Positions 6,047 to 44,856 of a DNA stretch of 64,000 nt are shown piece after piece. The stretch is from Minisyncoccota bacterium (GTDB lineage: Bacteria > Patescibacteriota > Minisyncoccia > Phycocordibacterales > UBA9973), in the NCBI GenBank assembly GCA_041674285.1, contig JBAYVZ010000001.1, forward strand, positions 10,167-74,166, read 5' to 3'. The notes below the pieces were generated by a model that saw nothing but the letters and a program-made list of their open reading frames with translations, had not been told where the DNA came from and did not search any database. Numbering within the stretch: the first letter of the stretch is position 1; the number at the start of each line of letters is the position of its first letter. The translations under genes were made by a program, and so were the position numbers.

Positions 6047-9000
6047 ATGAAAAATTTTGGACATAAAATAATTTCTTTGATTCTTTTGGTTGTACTACTG
6101 ATAACAAGTGGTTTTTTTGTTGATAATATAAAAAAAGCAAAAGCATCTAATTCAAAAACAGTTACAGTTACTTTTCGTACCACTCCAACTACTGCAACCG
6201 TTGCAAAAGCTCCACTGAAATATAATAAGGATTTTGCTTTTAGTTTTCAGATGGATGATGGTAGTGCGGACAACTACGAGAATGGTTTCAAATATATGTA
6301 TGGAGGTACTAGTTCATTATTAGAAGAAAGTTATGGTGGTAAATATTTTACAGATGGATCTGGACGATCTACTGCACTAGCTAGTAAGCCATTTCGTGGT
6401 GACTTTGTTTGGAATTCTCGAAACTATAGTTCAAGTTTTGTAGAGCTACACGCAGCCCTAAATACTCTTACTTGGACAAAACTCCTTGATGCGAATACTG
6501 CAGGATTTGACGTATTGAACCACAGTTGGTCTCATGCTGCTGTGACTACACTAGGGGATAATTATGTTTATGATTATCCTGCGCCACAAGGTGCTACTAC
6601 TCTGGAATCTGGTGGTTATGAATATGAACTTAGTCAAAACGAAGACGAGGTGGCTAGTCACGGGGTGACTATGGCACCACTTGCTATGGTTCCTCCGGCA
6701 GGAGATCATGGATATATAGATCCTGCTTTTTCTACTGGTTACAAGCTCGTAGCCAGTGAGAGTTCGTCTTTTACTTACTCAGGTGGGACGGTTGCTGTAG
6801 ATACGGGTGGTATGAATGTGACTTCGAGTGTAGATTTGGACCATCTTTTTGCTTATCGATATTTTTATGAAGATAGTAGATTTACCCCAAACACCGCTAC
6901 GGCTATCACTACACCCATAGACACACTTGCATCTCGTAGTCGTGGGTCAGATAAATACTGGGCTATTGGTTTTACTCATAGGACGAGTGTGGTCTCTGGT
7001 GGCCTATCAGAATCAAATTATGAATCATTGATGGACCATATTGCTAGTACTTATGGCCGTGATGGGGATGATTCTATCTGGATGGCTCCAGCCGAAGAGG
7101 TGTATGACTATTTATCCACAAAGCAAAATACAACAGTCTCTACAAACACAGTAGGGAATGTTATGACTATTACACTCGACACATCATCTGTACCAGCGTT
7201 GCGACGCGAGGCTCTATCTCTGGTTGTATCTTCTGATGCCGAGATTGAATCTATCGCATATGCTCCCGGAGAATTTACTGCTACTAGTTCAAATATAAAT
7301 ACTGGTCTGATTAATATGGATTGGGGTACTGTATATACAGCCAATGATTTTACCCGTGTAGAAACATTAGTATCCGCTGCTGAATCTAGTCGTGCGCAGT
7401 CTGACATCGATATCGCTACTACTTATGTCGCTATGTTGCCAGCAAGTGTTGAGAAAAATAATTTTACTAGTAGGTTAAATAATATTGTTGTTTTAGGTCA
7501 GCGATGGTTGATCAATCTGGGTATCAATAGTGCAGGCAAATTACAAGACACAGTAGTGGGTAGTGAGACAGAGAATCTTTGGTGGAATGAGATAAATTTA
7601 GTTTCCAATACTGGTTCAAATCAGACATCACCCATACTAGTAGACACTGCAAATGTAAATACTAGTCTTACTGTAGTTTTACCTCAATCTACTACTACAA
7701 ATTCTTGGGTAAAACCAGGAGCGGGTAGTGAGGGTCAGACTACTGTCACAGACGGTGATGGGGCTTATCCAAATGCTAAAATGCAAAAAGGTCTTTATAT
7801 CAGTAACGCAACAGAAACTTCACCTGTTGTTCAGATTCATAATCTTGACCCTGTAAAGAAATATAAGGTCACAATTTTTGGTTCTACAAAAAATTTAAAT
7901 AGCGGAAAAACTACGTCAAATATTGCAGTTCAGGGTGTATCTCAGGGTCCGTATCAGCATTATAATAATACAAGTAATACTTTAATATTTAGTTCCGTTT
8001 CTCCTACTGTTAGTGGGGTTATAGAGATTGTTATGACTCCTGTGAATCCAGCTTGGAGCGTGACTCCTATAAATGTCATCGATATCAGTGAGGTCACTCC
8101 TGCATTGCCAACTATAACTTTTAATTCTCAATCTCTACGCAGTCAGATTAGTGGGCTTGTTGATTACGGATATACTATTACTGATGACAATAGTGATCCT
8201 ATTTCCCTTATGAGCTATCAATACTCTGCCACCGGTGCATTTAATGGCGAGGAAGCGACTGCTACTCCAAAATCAAGCGACGGTCTTCATGATGGAATTT
8301 CTTCTTTGACTTCTTCTCCTGCGGGTGTTGCTCATGATTTCGTATGGGATGCTATTACTGATTTACTTGGACAAGAGGGAACTTTTTATCTAAGACTCCG
8401 ACCACAGAATCTATCCTCTGATGGGTCATATTCAATTGCTACTCCAGTCGCTCTCGATTTCAAGAACCCCGTACAGACTAGTATCGGCGCTACGACAACT
8501 TCATCTACTGCAAGTATCACTTGGACTACCCAAGAGATCGCGTATGGATTGGTGGAGTATGGTACTACGGATTCATATGGATCAAGTGTAGGATCCTTGT
8601 CATCTGGTACAGCGGTATTGAGTCATGATTTTGATTTGACTGGATTAGATGCTTGTACTACTTATCACTACCGTGTGTCTTCTCGAGATAGTGTGGGTAA
8701 CAATACCGTATCATCTGATCAGACGATGCATACAGCTGGATGCCCTGATCCTGTAGCTAGTCCTGTGGCTGGATTGTATAATGCGACTCAATCAGTGACA
8801 CTATCTGCTACTGGATCTTCTTCTATTCGCTATTCGACAACTAGTACCCCAGCTGATTGTTCTGCTGGTACTCTGTATAGTGGCGCGATATCTGTAGCAT
8901 CAGATACTACTATATATGTACGTGCTTGTGATATTTCAAACAATTCAACTACTGGTAGTTTCCTCTATACTATAGATTCCGAAGCCCCATCTACACCAGC

Positions 9001-13129: not shown

Positions 13130-14239
13130 ATGTCACTATCCATAGGAATCGTAGGCCTACCAAACGTAGGAAAATCAACATTATTCAACGCTCTGACTAA
13201 AAAGAGTGTACCCGCAGAAAATTATCCATTCTGTACTATCGACCCATCTGTGGGTGTAGTTCCTGTGCCTGATGATCGTCTATATAAACTTGCAGATTTT
13301 TCAAAGACCAATCGTACGATTCCAGCAGTCGTAGAATTCGTAGATATCGCAGGTCTAGTAGAAGGTGCGAGTAAAGGTGAAGGGTTGGGTAATAAATTCC
13401 TAGCCAATATCCGCGAGACCGATGCCATACTACATATGGTGCGCCTGTTCCCATTATCTGGTGGGGACAAAGAGATAGCTCATGTCTATGGCAATGTAGA
13501 TCCAATGCGAGATATAGCAGTGATCAATCTCGAGCTGATCCTCGCTGATTTCGAGACTGTGACCAAGAGACTCAGTAATTTGCAAAAAGATGTAAAGAAA
13601 GGAGACAAAGAGGCTGTAATGGAAGATGATGTTCTTCGCCGTGTTGAAAAAGTATTAGAGGCGGGAAAACTCGCAAATAGCTTAGACTATACAGAAGAAG
13701 AATTTAAGAAAATCAAAAGTCTAAATCTACTGACTAGCAAGCCGATGATCTATGGATTAAATAAAAAAGCCGGAGTCAAAAATTTGGACGAAGAGAAACC
13801 TGAATATTTTAAAGAGATGACGGACGAGATTGTATCCGGTGGATCGCAGTGGATATTGATCGATGCCAAGATTGAAGATGAACTCAAGGATTTTGAAGGT
13901 GAGGAAAAAGAGACTTTTCGTCGTGAGCTCGGAGGTGAACATGATGGTATAAATGATCTGATTGGTGGATGCTACAAGCTATTAGGTTTGGATACATATT
14001 TTACGACAGGGGTAGAGGAGACTCGTGCATGGACTATCAAGACTGGTAGCACTGCACCAGTAGCGGGTATGGCCATACATACAGATTTCAAAGACAAATT
14101 CATCCGTGCTGAGGTAGTATTCTGGCGTGATTTACTAGACGCTGGCTCTATGGGTGAGGCTCGTGCAAAGGGTAAAGTCCGCACAGAAGGCAAGGAATAT
14201 ATAGTAAAAGATGGAGATGTAATGGAGTTTAAGGTATAG
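13130..14239 (+). CDS. ychF: Ribosome-binding ATPase YchF (Obg-family GTPase)
   Basis: IGIVGLPNVGKSTLFNALT P-loop, FCTIDP, VEFVDIAGLV, TGS-like C-terminus; length typical. Confidence 0.9.
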   Translation: MSLSIGIVGLPNVGKSTLFNALTKKSVPAENYPFCTIDPSVGVVPVPDDRLYKLADFSKTNRTIPAVVEFVDIAGLVEGASKGEGLGNKFLANIRETDAILHMVRLFPLSGGDKEIAHVYGNVDPMRDIAVINLELILADFETVTKRLSNLQKDVKKGDKEAVMEDDVLRRVEKVLEAGKLANSLDYTEEEFKKIKSLNLLTSKPMIYGLNKKAGVKNLDEEKPEYFKEMTDEIVSGGSQWILIDAKIEDELKDFEGEEKETFRRELGGEHDGINDLIGGCYKLLGLDTYFTTGVEETRAWTIKTGSTAPVAGMAIHTDFKDKFIRAEVVFWRDLLDAGSMGEARAKGKVRTEGKEYIVKDGDVMEFKV

Positions 14240-14358
14240 CTTATTTAAGAGATAATATATAGTATTACCACTTCTTGCCCCGTAGCAAATTTTATGCATT
14301 TGATAAAATTTTGCATTGGGGTAGTAAAAGATGGAGATGTAATGGAGTTCAAGGTATA
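14201..14358 (+). repeat. Direct duplication of the last 39 bp of ychF, bracketing an 80-bp hairpin-containing insert
   Basis: (a/g)tagtaaaagatggagatgtaatggagtt(t/c)aaggtatag at 14201-14239 and 14320-14358. Insert 14240-14319 contains attaccacttcttgccccgtagc and the stem cccc/gcaaatttt...aaaattttgc/gggg. Confidence 0.75.
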
Positions 14359-14825
14359 GTATTGCATTAATTTTTATTTTTGGTATATTAAAAAGATGAG
14401 ACAAAGTTTCAAAAACACAAACGTCATTTATATTAACCTGCTGAAATACCAGTTAGAGGGTTAATTTTTGTGTTTTTTTAAACTACTATAAAAGAACAAA
14501 AAAATGAGCTCTCTAACGATAGCTCATTTTTTTGTTCTTTTATTTTTGTACCTTTAAAATTTATCACAATGGAAACAAATCCATCCACACAAGAAGGAGA
14601 GACAACTCCTGTAGAAAAAAATGAAGTTGAATCTTCACAAAGAAAAGGCCCTTACGACTTAGGGAATTTGACTGTCGAAGAGAGCAACGATCTTCCTAAG
14701 ATTAAAAAGAATATGGAAGAACAAAAAAGAGGTTTTAACCATGATGGTGGTTGTTACTAATTTTTTGAAATTTAGAGATAAGACCCAGTATATATATGCT
14801 GGGTCTTTTATGTTATATTTAAAAT

Positions 14826-29629: not shown

Positions 29630-29717
29630 AACACCCGTATGGGTGTTTTATCTTATAAAATAGGGAATTGATAAATATTAAAAAATCTGGTAATATCAGA
29701 TTACGTCTTTTGAGGCA

Positions 29718-29913
29718 TGCCTGGATAGCTCAGTTGTAGCGTCCCCGCAAAGAGCATTGAAGTTGTTACGTTTAATATAAAGAAATACGCCTGGATAGCT
29801 GTTTTGGTGGATAACGCAAAATTGTTGTAAAGGTTTAAATAATGCCTGGATAGCTCAGTTGTAGCGTCCCCGCAAAGAGCATTGAAGTTGTTACGTTTAA
29901 TATAAAGAAATAC
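29718..29913 (+). repeat. Array of tRNA-Phe 5'-fragment repeats: two 70/71-nt units plus a degenerate 55-nt unit, each starting with the first 12-18 nt of tRNA-Phe
   Basis: Units at 29718-29787 and 29843-29913 are identical except for 1 nt; the degenerate unit at 29788-29842 begins gcctggatagctg. All start gcctggatagct(cagttg), which is the acceptor/D-arm 5' end of the downstream tRNA-Phe. Confidence 0.7.
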
Positions 29914-29986
29914 GCCTGGATAGCTCAGTTGGTAGAGCGCTCCCCTGAAGAGGGATAGGTCCCCAGTTCAAATCTGGGTCCAGGCA
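29914..29986 (+). tRNA. tRNA-Phe (anticodon GAA)
   Basis: gcctgga-ta-gctcagttggtagagc-g-ctccc ctGAAga gggat-aggtc-cccag ttcaaat ctggg-tccaggc-a; canonical Phe anticodon loop CTGAAGA. Confidence 0.85.
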
Positions 29987-30277
29987 CAACAACCCGACTT
30001 TTGTCGGAAGCAACAAAATTTTCACGGGCGGCGCATAGCGCCGACCAAGGATTTTCGCCTGATTTATATGAAATCCTTCAAAGGTTTTCTTAATTGTAAT
30101 TTTAGAACAAATTAATTATTGCCCTTGCGATTGTTTTTTGGATAATCTGTAGTATGGACATATTATTTTAATATAGTATAGTCTAACTAATATTTGTTTA
30201 TTTGAAAAAGTTTAAAGTGTAGTCACAGTAGAGGATTTACCCCCTTTTGTGACCACACTTTAAATAAAATAACTGTT

Positions 30278-41188: not shown

Positions 41189-41216
41189 TTTTGACTTAAT
41201 TTTAAAAAGTGGTAAT
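41189..41216 (+). promoter_or_regulatory. Promoter-like element ttgacttaattttaaaaagtggtaat (copy 1)
   Basis: TTGACT -35, 16-17 nt spacer, TGgTAAT extended -10; identical copy at 41910-41937. Confidence 0.55.
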
Positions 41217-41840: not shown

Positions 41841-41845
41841 GTAAT

Positions 41846-41896
41846 TAAAACCCCAAATTCCCGTTTGCTTTCAGAGATGAAAGTGAACGGGTTTTT
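41846..41896 (+). terminator. Intrinsic terminator (cassette terminator copy 1)
   Basis: aaattcccgtttgctttcagagatgaaagtgaacgggtttttt: nested stem cccgtt/aacggg plus ctttc/gaaag and a T-run. Confidence 0.7.
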
Positions 41897-41909
41897 TATT
41901 TATATTATG

Positions 41910-41937
41910 CTTTGACTTAATTTTAAAAAGTGGTAAT
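41910..41937 (+). promoter_or_regulatory. Promoter-like element (copy 2 of ttgacttaattttaaaaagtggtaat)
   Basis: 27/27 identity with 41190-41216. Confidence 0.55.
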
Positions 41938-41963: not shown

Positions 41964-42788
41964 ATGGAAATAAAACAAAAGATTTTGAAAGAGCCTGTGC
42001 TTATCTCTGGTAAGGATTACTGGGGAAGGTCAGCATGGATTAAATTTTCTCCGTCCGTTCGTTCTGGGTGGTGGTGGAAAACCAAAGATGGGGTGATTCC
42101 TATTAATCACAAAATTGCAGAAAAAAGACGCGGGCAAATATCTCTTTGTTCGGGCTCAGAATCTATCGCAGTATGGGAGCATATAGGTGTTTTGAGATTT
42201 TTAGGATTTGATTGTGTTGAAGTAGAATCATCGCCTTGGGCTCCGTATGATGGATCCGCGCTTATTTACTACGAACACTTGGAGGGTAAATTTGCTGTTA
42301 GTGGCAGCAATATCCCCTGGGTCAGGATAACCGAAGATGTAAAGAGTGCGTATGATCCAAATAAGAGAGATGGTTATGTGAAGATCAGTCCTGTATTGTC
42401 TGATGGAAATGAAGTTGCTGATTTATGCTTGAGTGTTGAGGCAGGATGGTCTCCTCTCCCGAGCATAAATAGAACTGTGTTTGCTTCTGATCAGGATTAT
42501 CTATTAAGTATCTTGGGTGTAAAAGCCCAGGGCTATCCTCATTATCTTTATAATGTTGCAAAAGTTGCATCAAAACTTGGCTACCCTCATTTCAAGGAGC
42601 TAACATGGTTGGAAGATCATGGGCCAGAAAAAACCGCTGAACTATTTTTTAGCCATCGTGTTCTGGATTTGTTGGGATGCATGAGTTTGTGTCACCATGA
42701 ATACTTGCCTGTTGGTCATGTCGAGTCTCGTTTTGCTGGTCACGAAGTAGACCTCAGCGCAGTAAAAAAGTGTTTTGTATATTTATAA
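41964..42788 (+). CDS. LpxC-family (UDP-3-O-acyl-GlcNAc deacetylase-like) zinc deacetylase homologue
   Basis: VWEHIGVLRFLGFDCVEVESSPWAPYDGSALIY parallels the LpxC motif TVEHL.AL.G.GIDN..IE....E.PImDGSA. C-terminal HRVLDLLGCMSL parallels the LpxC HxxxD zinc motif (HKxLDxxGDL). Confidence 0.55.
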   Translation: MEIKQKILKEPVLISGKDYWGRSAWIKFSPSVRSGWWWKTKDGVIPINHKIAEKRRGQISLCSGSESIAVWEHIGVLRFLGFDCVEVESSPWAPYDGSALIYYEHLEGKFAVSGSNIPWVRITEDVKSAYDPNKRDGYVKISPVLSDGNEVADLCLSVEAGWSPLPSINRTVFASDQDYLLSILGVKAQGYPHYLYNVAKVASKLGYPHFKELTWLEDHGPEKTAELFFSHRVLDLLGCMSLCHHEYLPVGHVESRFAGHEVDLSAVKKCFVYL

Positions 42789-42794
42789 AGTCGT

Positions 42795-42852
42795 TTTAGA
42801 GCCCTAAATTCCCGTTTGCTTTCAGAGATGAAAGTGAGCGGGATTTTTTTAT
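42795..42852. terminator. Intrinsic terminator (cassette terminator copy 2; also terminates convergent tsaD)
   Basis: ctaaattcccgtttgctttcagagatgaaagtgagcgggattttttt: 2 mismatches versus copy 1. Confidence 0.7.
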
Positions 42853-44022
42853 TGGTTTTTTAAGATAATTAAAGTATCCTGCGATGGCTATCATCAGGCC
42901 GTTGTCAGTAGAAAGTTTTTTTGTAGGGAAGTATACTTTAATTTTTAATTTTTCATTTTTAATTTTTAAACCTACTTTCTCTCTCAATACTTTTTGTAAA
43001 TGCGTATTTGCAGATACTCCACCACCCACTATCAGCGTCTGGATTTTATATTTTTCTATGGCCTTGATTGTCTTGTATGTCAGGACTTCTACTATTGAAT
43101 CTTCTACTTCACAAGCTATTTCTTTTTTTTGTTCATCATTTATATCTCCAAGGTCGCGTATCAAATACAGCACTGCAGTCTTGAGTCCAGAGAATGAAAA
43201 ATCAAAATCTCCAGAGTGTATCATTGGGCGAGGTAATTTAATTTTATTCTCCTCTTGAGGAGTACCCGCCAATGCGGGGGAGGTGGATGTATTTGAATTC
43301 TTTCGATGCTCTGCTGCCAATTTAGAAATCTCTGGTCCGCCGGGGTACGGCAGGGATAGCATGCGGGCTACCTTATCAAAAGCTTCACCTGCTGCATCGT
43401 CACGAGTTTGACCGATGACTTTGTATTTGCCGAAATCTTTCATGAGGACTAGCTCTGTATGTCCACCAGATACGAGCAGAGAAAGAGCAGGGAACTGTAT
43501 CTCTGGAATTTTCCCCTCATCTGTCATCAATATAGATAATATATGCCCCTCCATGTGGTTCACAGGTAGTAGTGGGAGATCCCATGCGATAGACAGTGCT
43601 TTTGCAAAGCTGATACCTACCCATAGTGCTGGCTCGAGGCCTGGACCTACTGTCACAGCTATGGCATCTATCTTGGGCTTGGCTATCTTAGATATGGAAT
43701 TTATGAATGTTTCTGGTAAGTCATTTTCTCTTGAGAGTATCTCTTTTATTTTTACCTCATCAATTTTTAATTTTTCATTTTTAATTTTTAATTTAAATAG
43801 TCCTGCATCTTTGAGTGCTTTTTCAAAAACGGGTACGATATTCTTGCCGTGCTCGCGCTTTGCCATCATAGGGAATACGCCACCATAGTTCGTATGGATG
43901 GGTTGGGATTGTATTGCATTTGCCATCATGTGCAGACAGTGACTACTCTTTCCACGCTTCCGCGCGTCGAGTATCGCTATTCCTGTATCGTCGCAAGATG
44001 TTTCTATTGCTAGTATCTTCAT
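42796..44022 (-). CDS. tsaD: tRNA N6-adenosine threonylcarbamoyltransferase TsaD (Kae1/Gcp family) with Lys-rich insertions
   Basis: N-terminal MKILAIETSCDDTGIAILD, ...GGVFPMMAKREH..., ...LLVSGGHTELVLM..., C-terminal ...GGGVSANTHLQ...; 408 aa versus about 340 typical. Confidence 0.9.
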   Translation of the reverse strand: MKILAIETSCDDTGIAILDARKRGKSSHCLHMMANAIQSQPIHTNYGGVFPMMAKREHGKNIVPVFEKALKDAGLFKLKIKNEKLKIDEVKIKEILSRENDLPETFINSISKIAKPKIDAIAVTVGPGLEPALWVGISFAKALSIAWDLPLLPVNHMEGHILSILMTDEGKIPEIQFPALSLLVSGGHTELVLMKDFGKYKVIGQTRDDAAGEAFDKVARMLSLPYPGGPEISKLAAEHRKNSNTSTSPALAGTPQEENKIKLPRPMIHSGDFDFSFSGLKTAVLYLIRDLGDINDEQKKEIACEVEDSIVEVLTYKTIKAIEKYKIQTLIVGGGVSANTHLQKVLREKVGLKIKNEKLKIKVYFPTKKLSTDNGLMIAIAGYFNYLKKPIKKSRSLSSLKANGNLGL

Positions 44023-44128
44023 AATATTAATTATACTTTGAATTAAAATTTAAATTACCACTTCCCGCCCCGTAGGAAGTACTCTTTCCTTTGGGGTCGC
44101 AAGAGGTCTCTATCGCTAGAATCTTCAT
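43990..44128. repeat. 33-bp duplication of the tsaD start region, bracketing a 73-bp hairpin-containing insert
   Basis: gtcgcaagatgtttctattgctagtatcttcat (43990-44022) versus gtcgcaagaggtctctatcgctagaatcttcat (44096-44128). The 4 mismatches are all synonymous for MKILAIETSCD. The insert contains attaccacttcccgccccgtagg and the stem cccc/ggaa...ttcc/gggg. Confidence 0.75.
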
Positions 44129-44208
44129 TTTTAGAATATAGCAAATATAAGCCTTTTTGACTATACTTTATAAATATGTTATTTTAAATAAAAGAAAATT
44201 AATTTATC

Positions 44209-44790
44209 ATGAAAAAACATTTAATCACAATTGCGGGGAATAATGGAAGTGGTAAATCAACTACTTCAAAAAAAATAGCAAACACTCTAGGTTATACTCA
44301 TAAATCAACCGGAGATTTTATGCGATCTATAGCACTAGAAAAAGGTGTGACATTACAAGAATTGGGTAGTATTGCAGAAAAAGATCCAACTATAGACAAA
44401 ATGTTGGATGATTCAAATCTTGAAATTGGAAAGATGGACAATGTTGTTCTCGATTCACGTTTAGGGTTTTATTTTATACCGGATTCATTTAAAGTTTTTT
44501 TGAAGTGTGATTCAAAAATTGCGGCTACTCGATTTCTTAAATCAGCAGTAGAAAATCCAGACAGATTGAATGAAAATTTATCTAAGTCAGAAGATGTATC
44601 AGACATAGCTCGCTCATTTGATATCCGTTTGGAGAGTGAGAAAAAAAGATATGATGATTTGTATGGGATAAAAGATCATACAGATACATCAAATTTTGAT
44701 CTAGTTATTGATACGAGCCTTCCCGAGAACTCAAAAGAAAGAGTTCCACAAATTATTATTGAGGTCTACAATCAGTGGCTTAATAAGTAA
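44209..44790 (+). CDS. P-loop nucleoside monophosphate kinase-like protein (cytidylate-kinase-like)
   Basis: ITIAGNNGSGKSTTSKKIA Walker A at the N-terminus; 193 aa; family-level call only. Confidence 0.45.
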   Translation: MKKHLITIAGNNGSGKSTTSKKIANTLGYTHKSTGDFMRSIALEKGVTLQELGSIAEKDPTIDKMLDDSNLEIGKMDNVVLDSRLGFYFIPDSFKVFLKCDSKIAATRFLKSAVENPDRLNENLSKSEDVSDIARSFDIRLESEKKRYDDLYGIKDHTDTSNFDLVIDTSLPENSKERVPQIIIEVYNQWLNK

Positions 44791-44856
44791 TTTAAAGAAA
44801 AAAAGCTTCCTTTTAGGGGGCTTTTTTTTATTCCACAAAGGGTTTATAGTATATAT

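Follow-up and report, generated by a model that had tools for sequence, protein, structure and literature searches.

A gene-less hairpin insertion at the start of tsaD belongs to a family that may move among Patescibacteria together with its own copy of a gene end

The stretch of DNA analysed here, 64,000 nt of contig JBAYVZ010000001.1 of a Minisyncoccota bacterium (hereafter the window), carries at the 5' end of the tsaD gene a short insertion composed of an AT-rich spacer, a conserved 22-nt box (the 22-mer) and a hairpin, which separates the working start of the gene from a second, diverged copy of the same start. A sister element is found at the 3' end of ychF, and these are the two copies of the element in the 64 kb. 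We give about even credence to the reading in which both belong to a family of gene-less insertions that move among Patescibacteria, split a conserved gene near one of its ends and repair it with their own copy of that end. The analysis covered these 64 kb of the genome and short flanks of other loci, and comparison with relatives that have uninterrupted genes is what allows the two copies of each gene end to be told apart: the copy in the working gene appears to have arrived with the insertion, and the other copy, called here the orphan, looks like the displaced resident end.

The tsaD open reading frame (ORF) occupies 42796-44022 on the minus strand (408 aa; Pfam TsaD, E 1.7e-80). Positions 43990-44022 of the plus strand read gtcgcaagatgtttctattgctagtatcttcat, the reverse complement of which, ATGAAGATACTAGCAATAGAAACATCTTGCGAC, is the present start of tsaD, and a second copy of these 33 nt, gtcgcaagaggtctctatcgctagaatcttcat, is found at 44096-44128, with 73 nt between the copies (44023-44095). 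Both copies encode MKILAIETSCD and their four differences (ATA/ATT, GCA/GCG, GAA/GAG and ACA/ACC, working copy first) are all in the third position and silent; the original prediction, made from the letters of the window, had described this duplication with its four silent differences, and sequence, ORF and coordinates agree with it. The insert between them is composed, in order, of 31 AT-rich nt, the box ATTACCACTTCCCGCCCCGTAG and the hairpin GCCCCG-TA-GGAAGT-actct-TTTCC-TTT-GGGG. The current start, ATG plus codons 2-11 (43990..44022, minus), would be the imported patch and makes up the coding share of a 63-nt arm, the remainder of which is the spacer (44023..44053, minus), which is absent from relatives and contains a TATAAT (44035..44030) 7 nt before the new ATG. 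The 22-mer (44054..44075, plus) overlaps the hairpin (44067..44097, plus; minimum free energy -15.6 kcal/mol, z -4.9), since its last 9 nt, which include an invariant GTAG, form the 5' arm of the latter. This GTAG-tagged hairpin resembles the repetitive extragenic palindromes (REPs), is closed by a GCCCC/GGGG clamp and marks the end of the element at GGGG|T. Beyond it lies the orphan (44097..44128, minus), ATG plus 10 codons, with the native upstream region and promoter still attached; G 44096 is common to the orphan copy and the clamp. The native promoter-like site (44135..44163, minus; TAGTCA, 17 nt, TATATT, with a TG) is kept in relatives and now faces the orphan, from which a 33-codon ORF (MKILAIETSCDPKGKSTSYGAGSGNLNFNSKYN; 44027..44128, minus) runs through the hairpin and the 22-mer and ends with a TAA (44029-44027) 4 nt ahead of the new tsaD ATG.

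The original prediction had named a chimeric contig join as one of the findings that would undo it. A second contig, independently assembled from another sample (L035, SRR6484325), starts within the hairpin at window position 44075 and carries the sequence from there into and past the orphan with 100% identity over 4716 nt; the tsaD structure is therefore neither a chimeric join nor an assembly artefact. The element, as a repeat, is probably the cause of contig breaks at this locus.

At ychF, the 62-nt arm (14202..14263, plus) comprises the working 3' end of the gene (14202-14239, stop codon included) and a 24-nt spacer that is absent from five relatives with empty sites. It is followed by the 22-mer and a long AT-stem hairpin with loop ATGCATTTGAT and a GGGG end (14264..14321, plus), and then by the orphan 3' end (14322..14359, plus), 38 nt with a single synonymous difference (TTC vs TTT), directly after which the native downstream region begins. 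The motif that the original prediction saw in both inserts is real, but not identical: ATTACCACTTCCCGCCCCGTAGG at tsaD (44054-44076) and ATTACCACTTCTTGCCCCGTAGC at ychF (14264-14286) have 3 mismatches in 23, and none of 100 shuffles matched. The hairpin arms had been described correctly, GGAAG...CTTTCC at tsaD vs CAAATTTT...AAAATTTTG at ychF, with the GCCCC...GGGG clamp on both, and the two inserts belong to the same family. When the whole window was scanned sensitively for diverged duplications close to each other, only three gene ends turned up, those of ychF, tsaD and tRNA-Phe.

A motif search and a comparison of tsaD upstream regions, both proposed together with the original prediction, extended the family well beyond the window and gave empty sites in relatives. 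The exact 22-mer, ATTACCACTTCYYGCCCCGTAG, is present in 33 public Patescibacteria contigs, 25 of them from metagenomes and eight from genomes, the latter searched in a collection representing 185,579 species and belonging to Paceibacterota, Saccharibacteria, Zambryskiibacteriota, Parcubacteria-group and otherwise unplaced assemblies. No exact match was found in 2.9 million viral contigs, and phage and plasmid records had no relevant matches. Approximately 25 copies are distinct, and nearly all of them have one order: working gene end, AT-rich spacer, 22-mer, GTAG hairpin ending in GGGG, and T plus the orphan gene end. When the gene is opposite to the motif strand its 5' end is duplicated (tsaD, uvrB, clpP, gatB, yebC, an exonuclease III-like gene, a translational GTPase, an ABC-F ATPase, nusB and transketolase), and when it lies on the motif strand it is the 3' end (ychF and an EF-G-like gene, fusA, in L001). 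The targets are thus 12 housekeeping families, ten of which are confirmed by Pfam (TsaD, UvrB, ClpP, GatB, YebC, translational GTPase, Exo_endo_phos, NusB, transketolase and EF-G-like), the ABC-F and YchF labels being names taken from the sequence sources. The insertion is precise and orientation-specific, at N|T inside the conserved gene and with the far end at GGGG|T. The inserted unit measures about 105-165 bp (some 106 nt at tsaD, the 73-nt insert plus one 33-nt copy) and contains no gene: apart from the orphan read-through there is no ORF in the tsaD insert, and no ORF or cargo was found in any copy. At the 3' end of the EF-G-like gene of L001 (the same as L019; 1330-1590) two elements stand in tandem, giving three successive coding copies with a 64-nt arm each, the first orphan and its spacer adding up to 64 nt again, and nine of nine and six of six codon differences at this locus are silent.

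Two loci have more complex arrangements. In L011 (about 6100-6300 in motif orientation; compare L013), the hairpin of the GTPase-gene element has after it, instead of the orphan of the GTPase gene, the arm, module and orphan of another gene (start MLNK...), both hairpins being identical, which suggests that recombination between elements rearranged the chromosome. In L026 (about 6850-6885, motif orientation), the Exo_endo_phos (xthA-like) element holds within its hairpin loop, ATGCA|TTCGAT, a second mini-hairpin with GTAG and clamp (GTCCCGCAGTGAAC...GTTCTACTGCTGGGA), and the hairpin alone may be able to insert.

The hairpins were compared by per-sequence folds and by alignment within the same class. 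All 27 distinct hairpins fold with the GCCCC/GGGG clamp (z from -1.6 to -8.3), and in the long-stem class, made up of ten hairpins, compensatory double changes are found at 10 of 17 pairs, in line with the structured element that the original prediction had proposed. GTAG is invariant in the 32 occurrences listed, even where it is unpaired, and a stem-loop comes after it in the 27 folded copies. In 26 of 27 elements the motif strand folds more stably than its complement, and it has more G.U pairs (47 vs 3, or about 20 vs 3 without the added terminal G.T pair); stability and G.U bias together point to a working single-stranded form of the motif strand, DNA or RNA. The hairpin of tsaD is one base off that of the Exo_endo_phos (xthA-like) element of L017, and a loop, ATGCATTCGAT, recurs in elements of five genes; since hairpin modules are common to elements of different genes, the module has moved between gene contexts. 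Rfam returned only tRNAs at gathering score in the window and nothing better than E 6 in 43900-44250.

The two copies of each gene end differ as coding sequences do. Across 20 element/orphan pairs there are 62 synonymous vs 28 non-synonymous codon differences, the latter count being inflated by some mis-set frames, and the 112 nucleotide differences fall mostly in the third position (77, against 20 in the first and 15 in the second). None of the 20 orphans has a frameshift or a premature stop. Drift after a duplication in place would hit all positions of the unselected copy, and therefore both copies evolved in working genes of different lineages. This bears out the claim of the original prediction that the duplication did not arise by slippage in situ, and one half of its further claim that the extra copy is an imported homologue: the copies did diverge under coding constraint in different lineages, but the upstream copy does not appear to be the import.

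The empty sites of relatives indicate the reverse direction. In relatives with a TsaD 85-96% identical, the intergenic region measures 79 nt vs 186 nt here, and the roughly 106 nt in excess correspond to the 73-nt insert and one 33-nt copy taken together. Their upstream sequence (...TATATTTGCTATATTCTA), which abuts the ATG without any spacer, is the one that precedes the orphan here, so that the orphan occupies the place of the native start. The codons with the four differences are ATT, GCG (GCA in one), GAG and ACA in the relatives, ATT, GCG, GAG and ACC in the orphan, and ATA, GCA, GAA and ACA in the working copy; the orphan agrees with the relatives at three of four, those far from the hairpin. 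The opposing ACC could be explained by a single mutation at a later time, or by a joint lying some bases into the repeat. At ychF, the 120-nt insert is missing from five relatives (97-98% identity), in which the stop codon borders directly on the sequence that here comes after the orphan. The clearest case for the direction of import is the ABC-F gene of L022. Its orphan, MSAQESHG(D), comes after the same upstream sequence and neighbour gene as in the empty-site locus L040, which encodes a 96%-identical protein starting with MSTQELHGE, whereas the working N-terminus, MSKNQRNNNTESVSAGE, is another allelic type, native at the empty loci L041 and L042, and arm and orphan have only about 5 nt in common at the junction. 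Because the empty-site relatives match the orphan and its flank at tsaD and ABC-F, the orphan looks like the displaced resident end at both loci, and the working end appears to have arrived with the insert.

The same evidence bears on a local origin, in which a host regulatory structure (an attenuator, an antisense RNA or an insulator) was formed by local duplication or slippage, or the arrangement is an assembly artefact. The hairpin does stand between two promoters and next to a short upstream ORF, and with the orphan ORF ending 4 nt before the ATG of tsaD a translational coupling is conceivable. Nevertheless, the insert is absent from relatives at 96-98% identity, twelve unrelated genes and several phylum-level lineages carry the same module, the spacer does not derive from local sequence, no terminator-like site was found at the locus, the coding-type divergence rules out slippage followed by drift, and the sequence is confirmed by an independent assembly. 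This explanation is already largely refuted and we consider it hardly credible.

A constant feature of the family is the length of the arm, counted from the position in the working copy to which base 1 of the orphan aligns, up to where the 22-mer starts. It measures 60-64 nt in every one of the approximately 25 distinct copies (63 nt each in L022 and L024, measured by hand), and its composition varies widely, from 14 coding nt in nusB to 58 in transketolase, with the spacer going down from 49 to 6 nt. At both window loci, tsaD and ychF, the spacer is a non-native flank, because of which the arm can be taken as one contiguous imported piece; the mobile unit would then be composed of arm, 22-mer and hairpin, and the fixed arm length argues for a measuring step, either at capture or at a founding insertion. 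Two other origins of the constant length were considered and rejected. An insertion at fixed distance (60-66 bp) beside a native gene end, in the manner of CRISPR-associated transposons, does not agree with a spacer that is not native flank at either window locus. A 63-bp target-site duplication in the present genome is contradicted by a spacer unlike the flank of the orphan, by a similarity that stops at the start or stop codon, and by the copies of L022, which are different allelic types.

Insertion at a 5' end has a consequence for transcription. A TANNNT box ends 5-10 nt before the start codon in 32 of 62 window ORFs, many of them with a perfect TATAAT and an upstream TG, and a Shine-Dalgarno-like motif is found in only three, which suggests a genome with mostly leaderless genes. 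Read on the opposite strand, the 22-mer carries GAAGTGGTAAT, an extended -10 box (TGnTAAT), and in the elements with spacers of 6-14 nt its TAAT(AT) lies about 6 nt before the ATG. The same AAGTGGTAAT serves as the extended -10 in two promoter-like sites (TTGACT, 16 nt, TAAT), 41190-41216 and 41911-41937, each of them upstream of an ORF, and TGGTAATAT is found upstream of tRNA-Phe. All three sites contain TGGTAAT. In 5'-end insertions, we infer that the element supplies the promoter for a leaderless mRNA, with the -10 either in the spacer or, when the spacer is short, in the TGGTAAT(AT) of the 22-mer, and that the native tsaD promoter would now yield only the short orphan ORF.

How such a unit would move is the weakest step of the favoured reading. 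A trans-acting enzyme would recognise the hairpin folded in the single-stranded motif strand and cut after GGGG, the candidates being a REP-associated tyrosine (HUH) transposase (RAYT) or an attC-type tyrosine recombinase. Break repair or strand transfer would then complete the insertion in a new host, at the orthologous gene, using a few conserved junction bases and no long homology, and the gene would then consist of its body and an imported end, with the resident end left as an orphan beside the hairpin on its native flank. Long homology between patch and target would not be needed, because arm and orphan of L022 have about 5 nt in common at the junction, and it is the presence of one module in twelve genes that argues for a mobility of its own. 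The window encodes a RAYT-like ORF (1383-2087, 234 aa), which matches NCBIfam NF047646 REP_Tyr_transpos with E 1.2e-12 and Pfam Y1_Tnp with E 0.0026. This gene has its own palindrome, CCACAGGTCSGACCTGTGG, on its flanks (1346 and 2060), and a third copy of it is found in frame inside the gene at 1652, just past the HUH-like motif HFHLIL.

Several points weigh against this favoured reading. The RAYT-like protein scores under both curated cut-offs (47.9 bits vs 80 for NF047646, and below the gathering score for Y1_Tnp), the palindrome flanking its gene is different from the element and found nowhere else in the window, no RAYT homologue was found in any other fetched locus, and no enzyme is tied to the element. 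No circular or excised form was seen. The motif strand has no consistent orientation to the majority gene strand (9 vs 18 loci); the GC skew of the window is uniformly positive. As for the direction of import, the call of native and imported copy at tsaD depends on four sites only, and the one nearest to the hairpin points opposite, and at ychF it depends on a single site at which the relatives are split, since the two closest lineages share TTC with the orphan and a third has TTT. No co-conversion tract was seen in the tsaD body, so that break repair is a putative step; in the bodies of tsaD and ABC-F identity is flat or the lineages are equidistant, and co-conversion is hence uninformative there. 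Promoter activity is predicted from the consensus, and at 3'-end insertions the promoter of the 22-mer would be directed antisense into the gene, therefore promoting transcription cannot be its only role. Finally, the collection searches demanded the exact 22-mer and are thus biased to intact, compact copies, so that diverged, decayed or cargo-bearing relatives would have escaped them.

Part of this, such as the fact that no enzyme was found, would be accommodated by a passive spread, in which, after a rare founding event, the block of arm, hairpin and orphan moves between lineages by DNA uptake and host recombination. The gene body would be one homology arm and the orphan, as conserved coding sequence, a portable second one wherever intergenic DNA has diverged too far, and the hairpin and 22-mer would persist as a promoter or a REP-like signal. 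All the targets are highly conserved genes with junctions in conserved codons, the arm and orphan of ychF differ at only 1 nt in 38, and the mosaic structure of the tsaD orphan (foreign at the junction-near ACC, native at the distal sites and the flank) is the one expected from a crossover inside the orphan. On the other hand, the allelic types of L022, with about 5 nt of junction in common, show that the right-hand joint needed no real homology, and co-conversion was not seen. Passive spread leaves unexplained one hairpin module in different genes (tsaD and the Exo_endo_phos gene of L017), a 60-64-nt arm common to twelve gene families and an invariant 22-mer across phylum-level hosts, and we regard it as unlikely.

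It is possible, in a tentative way, that the hairpin module is what can be seen of an undescribed programmable insertion system. An enzyme working in trans, either specific for single strands or guided by RNA, would measure out 63 nt of a conserved gene end as a copy and place this arm, with the module, precisely in orthologues of other genomes, the orphan being perhaps a guide or a stretch of homology. That the mobilising mechanism is itself new has, in our opinion, about one chance in four. An RNA-guided variant would be a "cleave and rescue" device, with the 22-mer and hairpin as scaffold and the orphan as guide (a TnpB/Cas12-type geometry, scaffold 5' and guide 3'), in which a trans-acting nuclease cuts those uninterrupted alleles to which the orphan matches, and the recoded patch is immune and rescues the gene. 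The geometry of scaffold followed by target copy is found in every copy, the motif strand, with its G.U excess and higher stability, is compatible with an RNA of that sense, the working copy is synonymously recoded, and the tandem in fusA could be a re-insertion. Nonetheless, 5'-end insertions have no conserved promoter for the motif strand (the arm is variable and antisense to the gene), the scaffold is short (43-64 nt) and without any Rfam family match, and no TnpB, IscB or Cas gene was found among the selected window ORFs scanned or beside any copy. Type V-K CRISPR transposons insert with a spacing of 60-66 bp, but the parallel to the arm length is inapplicable, as the spacer is imported and not native flank. 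We consider this variant rather improbable.

A further alternative is that each copy is the scar of a large tyrosine-integrase island or prophage that restored the gene end and then lost its cargo, leaving attL and attR adjacent. Genomic islands do follow this logic, in which a gene is split, its end restored and a fragment displaced (PMC4383910). Against it, none of the approximately 25 copies carries cargo and all are compact, their spacers measuring 6-49 nt; a constant 63-nt arm is not what independent deletions would produce, and one module would have to serve twelve unrelated att sequences. Furthermore, the identical core at both junctions, which measures 9-10 nt at tsaD in the window, is reduced to 2-5 nt in L005, L006, L007 and L022, and the viral contigs gave no exact 22-mer match. 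An island scar is thus very improbable.

The window has other notable features. The 3' end of tsaD (53 nt, with a hairpin) is also duplicated, 951 bp away (41845-41897 and 42796-42848), on either side of an LpxC-like ORF of 274 aa (41964-42788) that has its own promoter and is missing in the relative L036. The orphan 3' end encodes ...KTRSLSSLKANGNLGF, which is the C-terminus of the relatives P0003 and P0004. This duplication has the same logic of patch and orphan as the element, but with a gene as cargo and without a 22-mer hairpin. A 27-nt promoter, TTTGACTTAATTTTAAAAAGTGGTAAT, is repeated at 41190 and 41911. Within tsaD, an exact 30-nt repeat (42940-42969 and 43762-43791) encodes LKIKNEKLKI at two positions of the protein, and TsaD orthologues vary in this repeat and in other short in-frame inserts, such as NSNTSTSPALAGTPQEENK and PLLRGGSKRRGG. 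Between murE and tsaD lies a gene for a 193-aa kinase (44180-44802; AAA_18 / cytidylate-kinase-like), which is non-homologous to the guanylate-kinase-family gene of 191-196 aa that occupies the same place in L036-L039, and its flanks are 90-95% identical to those of the same loci; this looks like a non-orthologous gene replacement. Downstream of ychF, the non-coding segment 14360-14475 is kept in the five relatives and contains a promoter-like TTGCAT...TGGTATATT and a terminator-like ACACAAA...TTTGTGTTTTTTT, and it may be a small RNA gene, for which no Rfam match was obtained at gathering score. The first 12-18 nt of the intact tRNA-Phe (29914-29987) recur four times upstream of it, within a 125-nt tandem duplication (window 29717-29936). 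It was considered as a member of the family, since the 52-nt insert that separates the copies (TAGCGTCCCCGCAAAGAGCATTGAAGTTGTTACG...) is loosely like a truncated reverse complement of the element, but with an arm of about 37 nt and half of the hairpin missing it was not assigned.

The family matters in several respects. Essential, conserved genes, such as tsaD, uvrB, clpP, gatB, fusA and others, can be invaded repeatedly and without harm by an element of about 100 bp that has its own patch and a predicted promoter, and the first or last 5-19 codons of many housekeeping genes of Patescibacteria may thus be horizontally acquired, which is relevant for phylogeny, strain typing and gene calling. 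Gene callers can pick the wrong start at these loci, and contigs break at the element repeat (L010, L025, L027 and L035). The constant arm and the precise junction speak for a mechanism that measures and finds its site with almost no homology, and should an enzyme prove responsible, it would offer a candidate tool for programmable insertion. The element also opens a way to study how promoters are replaced where most genes appear leaderless, and how genes flow among uncultured bacteria of reduced genome. Were the programmable system to prove true, it would be a natural analogue of the engineered "cleave and rescue" or knock-in cassettes, aimed at essential genes and spread over a whole bacterial superphylum.

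Among known systems, the comparison is drawn with hairpin elements and with elements that replace gene ends. REPs tagged with GTAG are short imperfect palindromes with an invariant GTAG (or GTGG) at their 5' foot (PMC3733652); their stems often contain G.T pairs, and they are located at gene ends (PMC3733652, PMC3479197 and PMC3333891). The element shares with them the GTAG foot, the short palindrome, the G.T pairing and the gene-end site, and an ORF that is RAYT-like, with scores under both curated cut-offs, is present in the same window. REPs are, however, high-copy and mostly extragenic, whereas the element has two copies in 64 kb, and nearly every copy of the family is accompanied by a 60-64-nt arm and an orphan. 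A REPtron is a RAYT gene flanked by its cognate REPs, and the CCACAGGTCSGACCTGTGG flanks of the RAYT-like gene are not the hairpin of the element. Nothing in REPs corresponds to the GCCCC/GGGG clamp, to the 22-mer or to the 63-nt arm, and gene-end copies are not reported for REPs in PMC3733652, where neither "duplication" nor "target site" appears.

The attC sites of integrons are recognised by their shape and not by their sequence, with a conserved basal stem, a bulge, a second stem and a variable loop, and crossover takes place at G|TT. Hairpin shape, a G|T junction (A|C on the other strand), fixed orientation and the newest tandem unit standing beside the fixed site (L001) are reminiscent of them; unlike integrons, no integrase, attI or Pc was found within the window, the cassette would be a 63-nt gene fragment, and one T, not TT, is conserved after the cut. 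Insertion sequences of the IS200/IS605 family carry a hairpin at each end and enter 3' of a fixed tetra- or pentanucleotide. The element resembles them in its strand-specific, single-stranded hairpin end, in the lack of a classical short target duplication and in the order of scaffold and then flanking DNA, but it has one hairpin, and its left boundary has no conserved motif beyond N|T. In CRISPR transposons and TnpB systems the guide copy would be part of the element, with its native target a set distance away from the insertion, but here the copy beside the hairpin is native and it is the 63-nt segment that is imported. A diversity-generating retroelement was also considered, given that all four tsaD differences are at an A of the working copy, and rejected, as other pairs, such as those of L001 and L003, differ at all bases; no reverse transcriptase was seen.

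Closest in logic are the systems that split a gene and restore it. Integrases also insert islands into dusA. In tRNA and tmRNA genes, the target is split by the island, restored by the element and left with a displaced fragment at the far end (PMC4383910), and the empty and filled sites of the element compare in the same way. These islands measure kilobases and have their own integrase and one att specificity, whereas the element has neither integrase nor cargo, enters twelve genes and has almost no common core. In the mitochondria of fungi, mORFs (in atp6 of Allomyces and in atp6, atp9, cox2 and nad3 of Glomus) are mobile inserts in a gene end that bring a foreign in-frame end and form "hybrid genes", in which the native copy matches close relatives and the inserted copy is diverged in nucleotides and conserved in protein (PMC3630166). 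As in the element, a foreign in-frame terminus replaces a native terminus that is displaced and matches relatives, but mORFs encode a homing endonuclease, measure hundreds to thousands of bp and are found at 3' ends, whereas the element, of about 105-165 bp and without an ORF, is also found at 5' ends, brings a predicted promoter and has a fixed 63-nt arm and a hairpin module common to many targets. Literature searches gave no description of this architecture. To our knowledge, no bacterial element without an ORF does the same. The logic of splitting, restoring and displacing is known from the fungal mitochondrial mORFs and the integrase islands, both of which encode their own enzyme, and the combination of a gene-less unit of about 100 bp, a fixed 63-nt gene-end arm, a predicted promoter and many targets sets the element apart from every known system with which it was compared.

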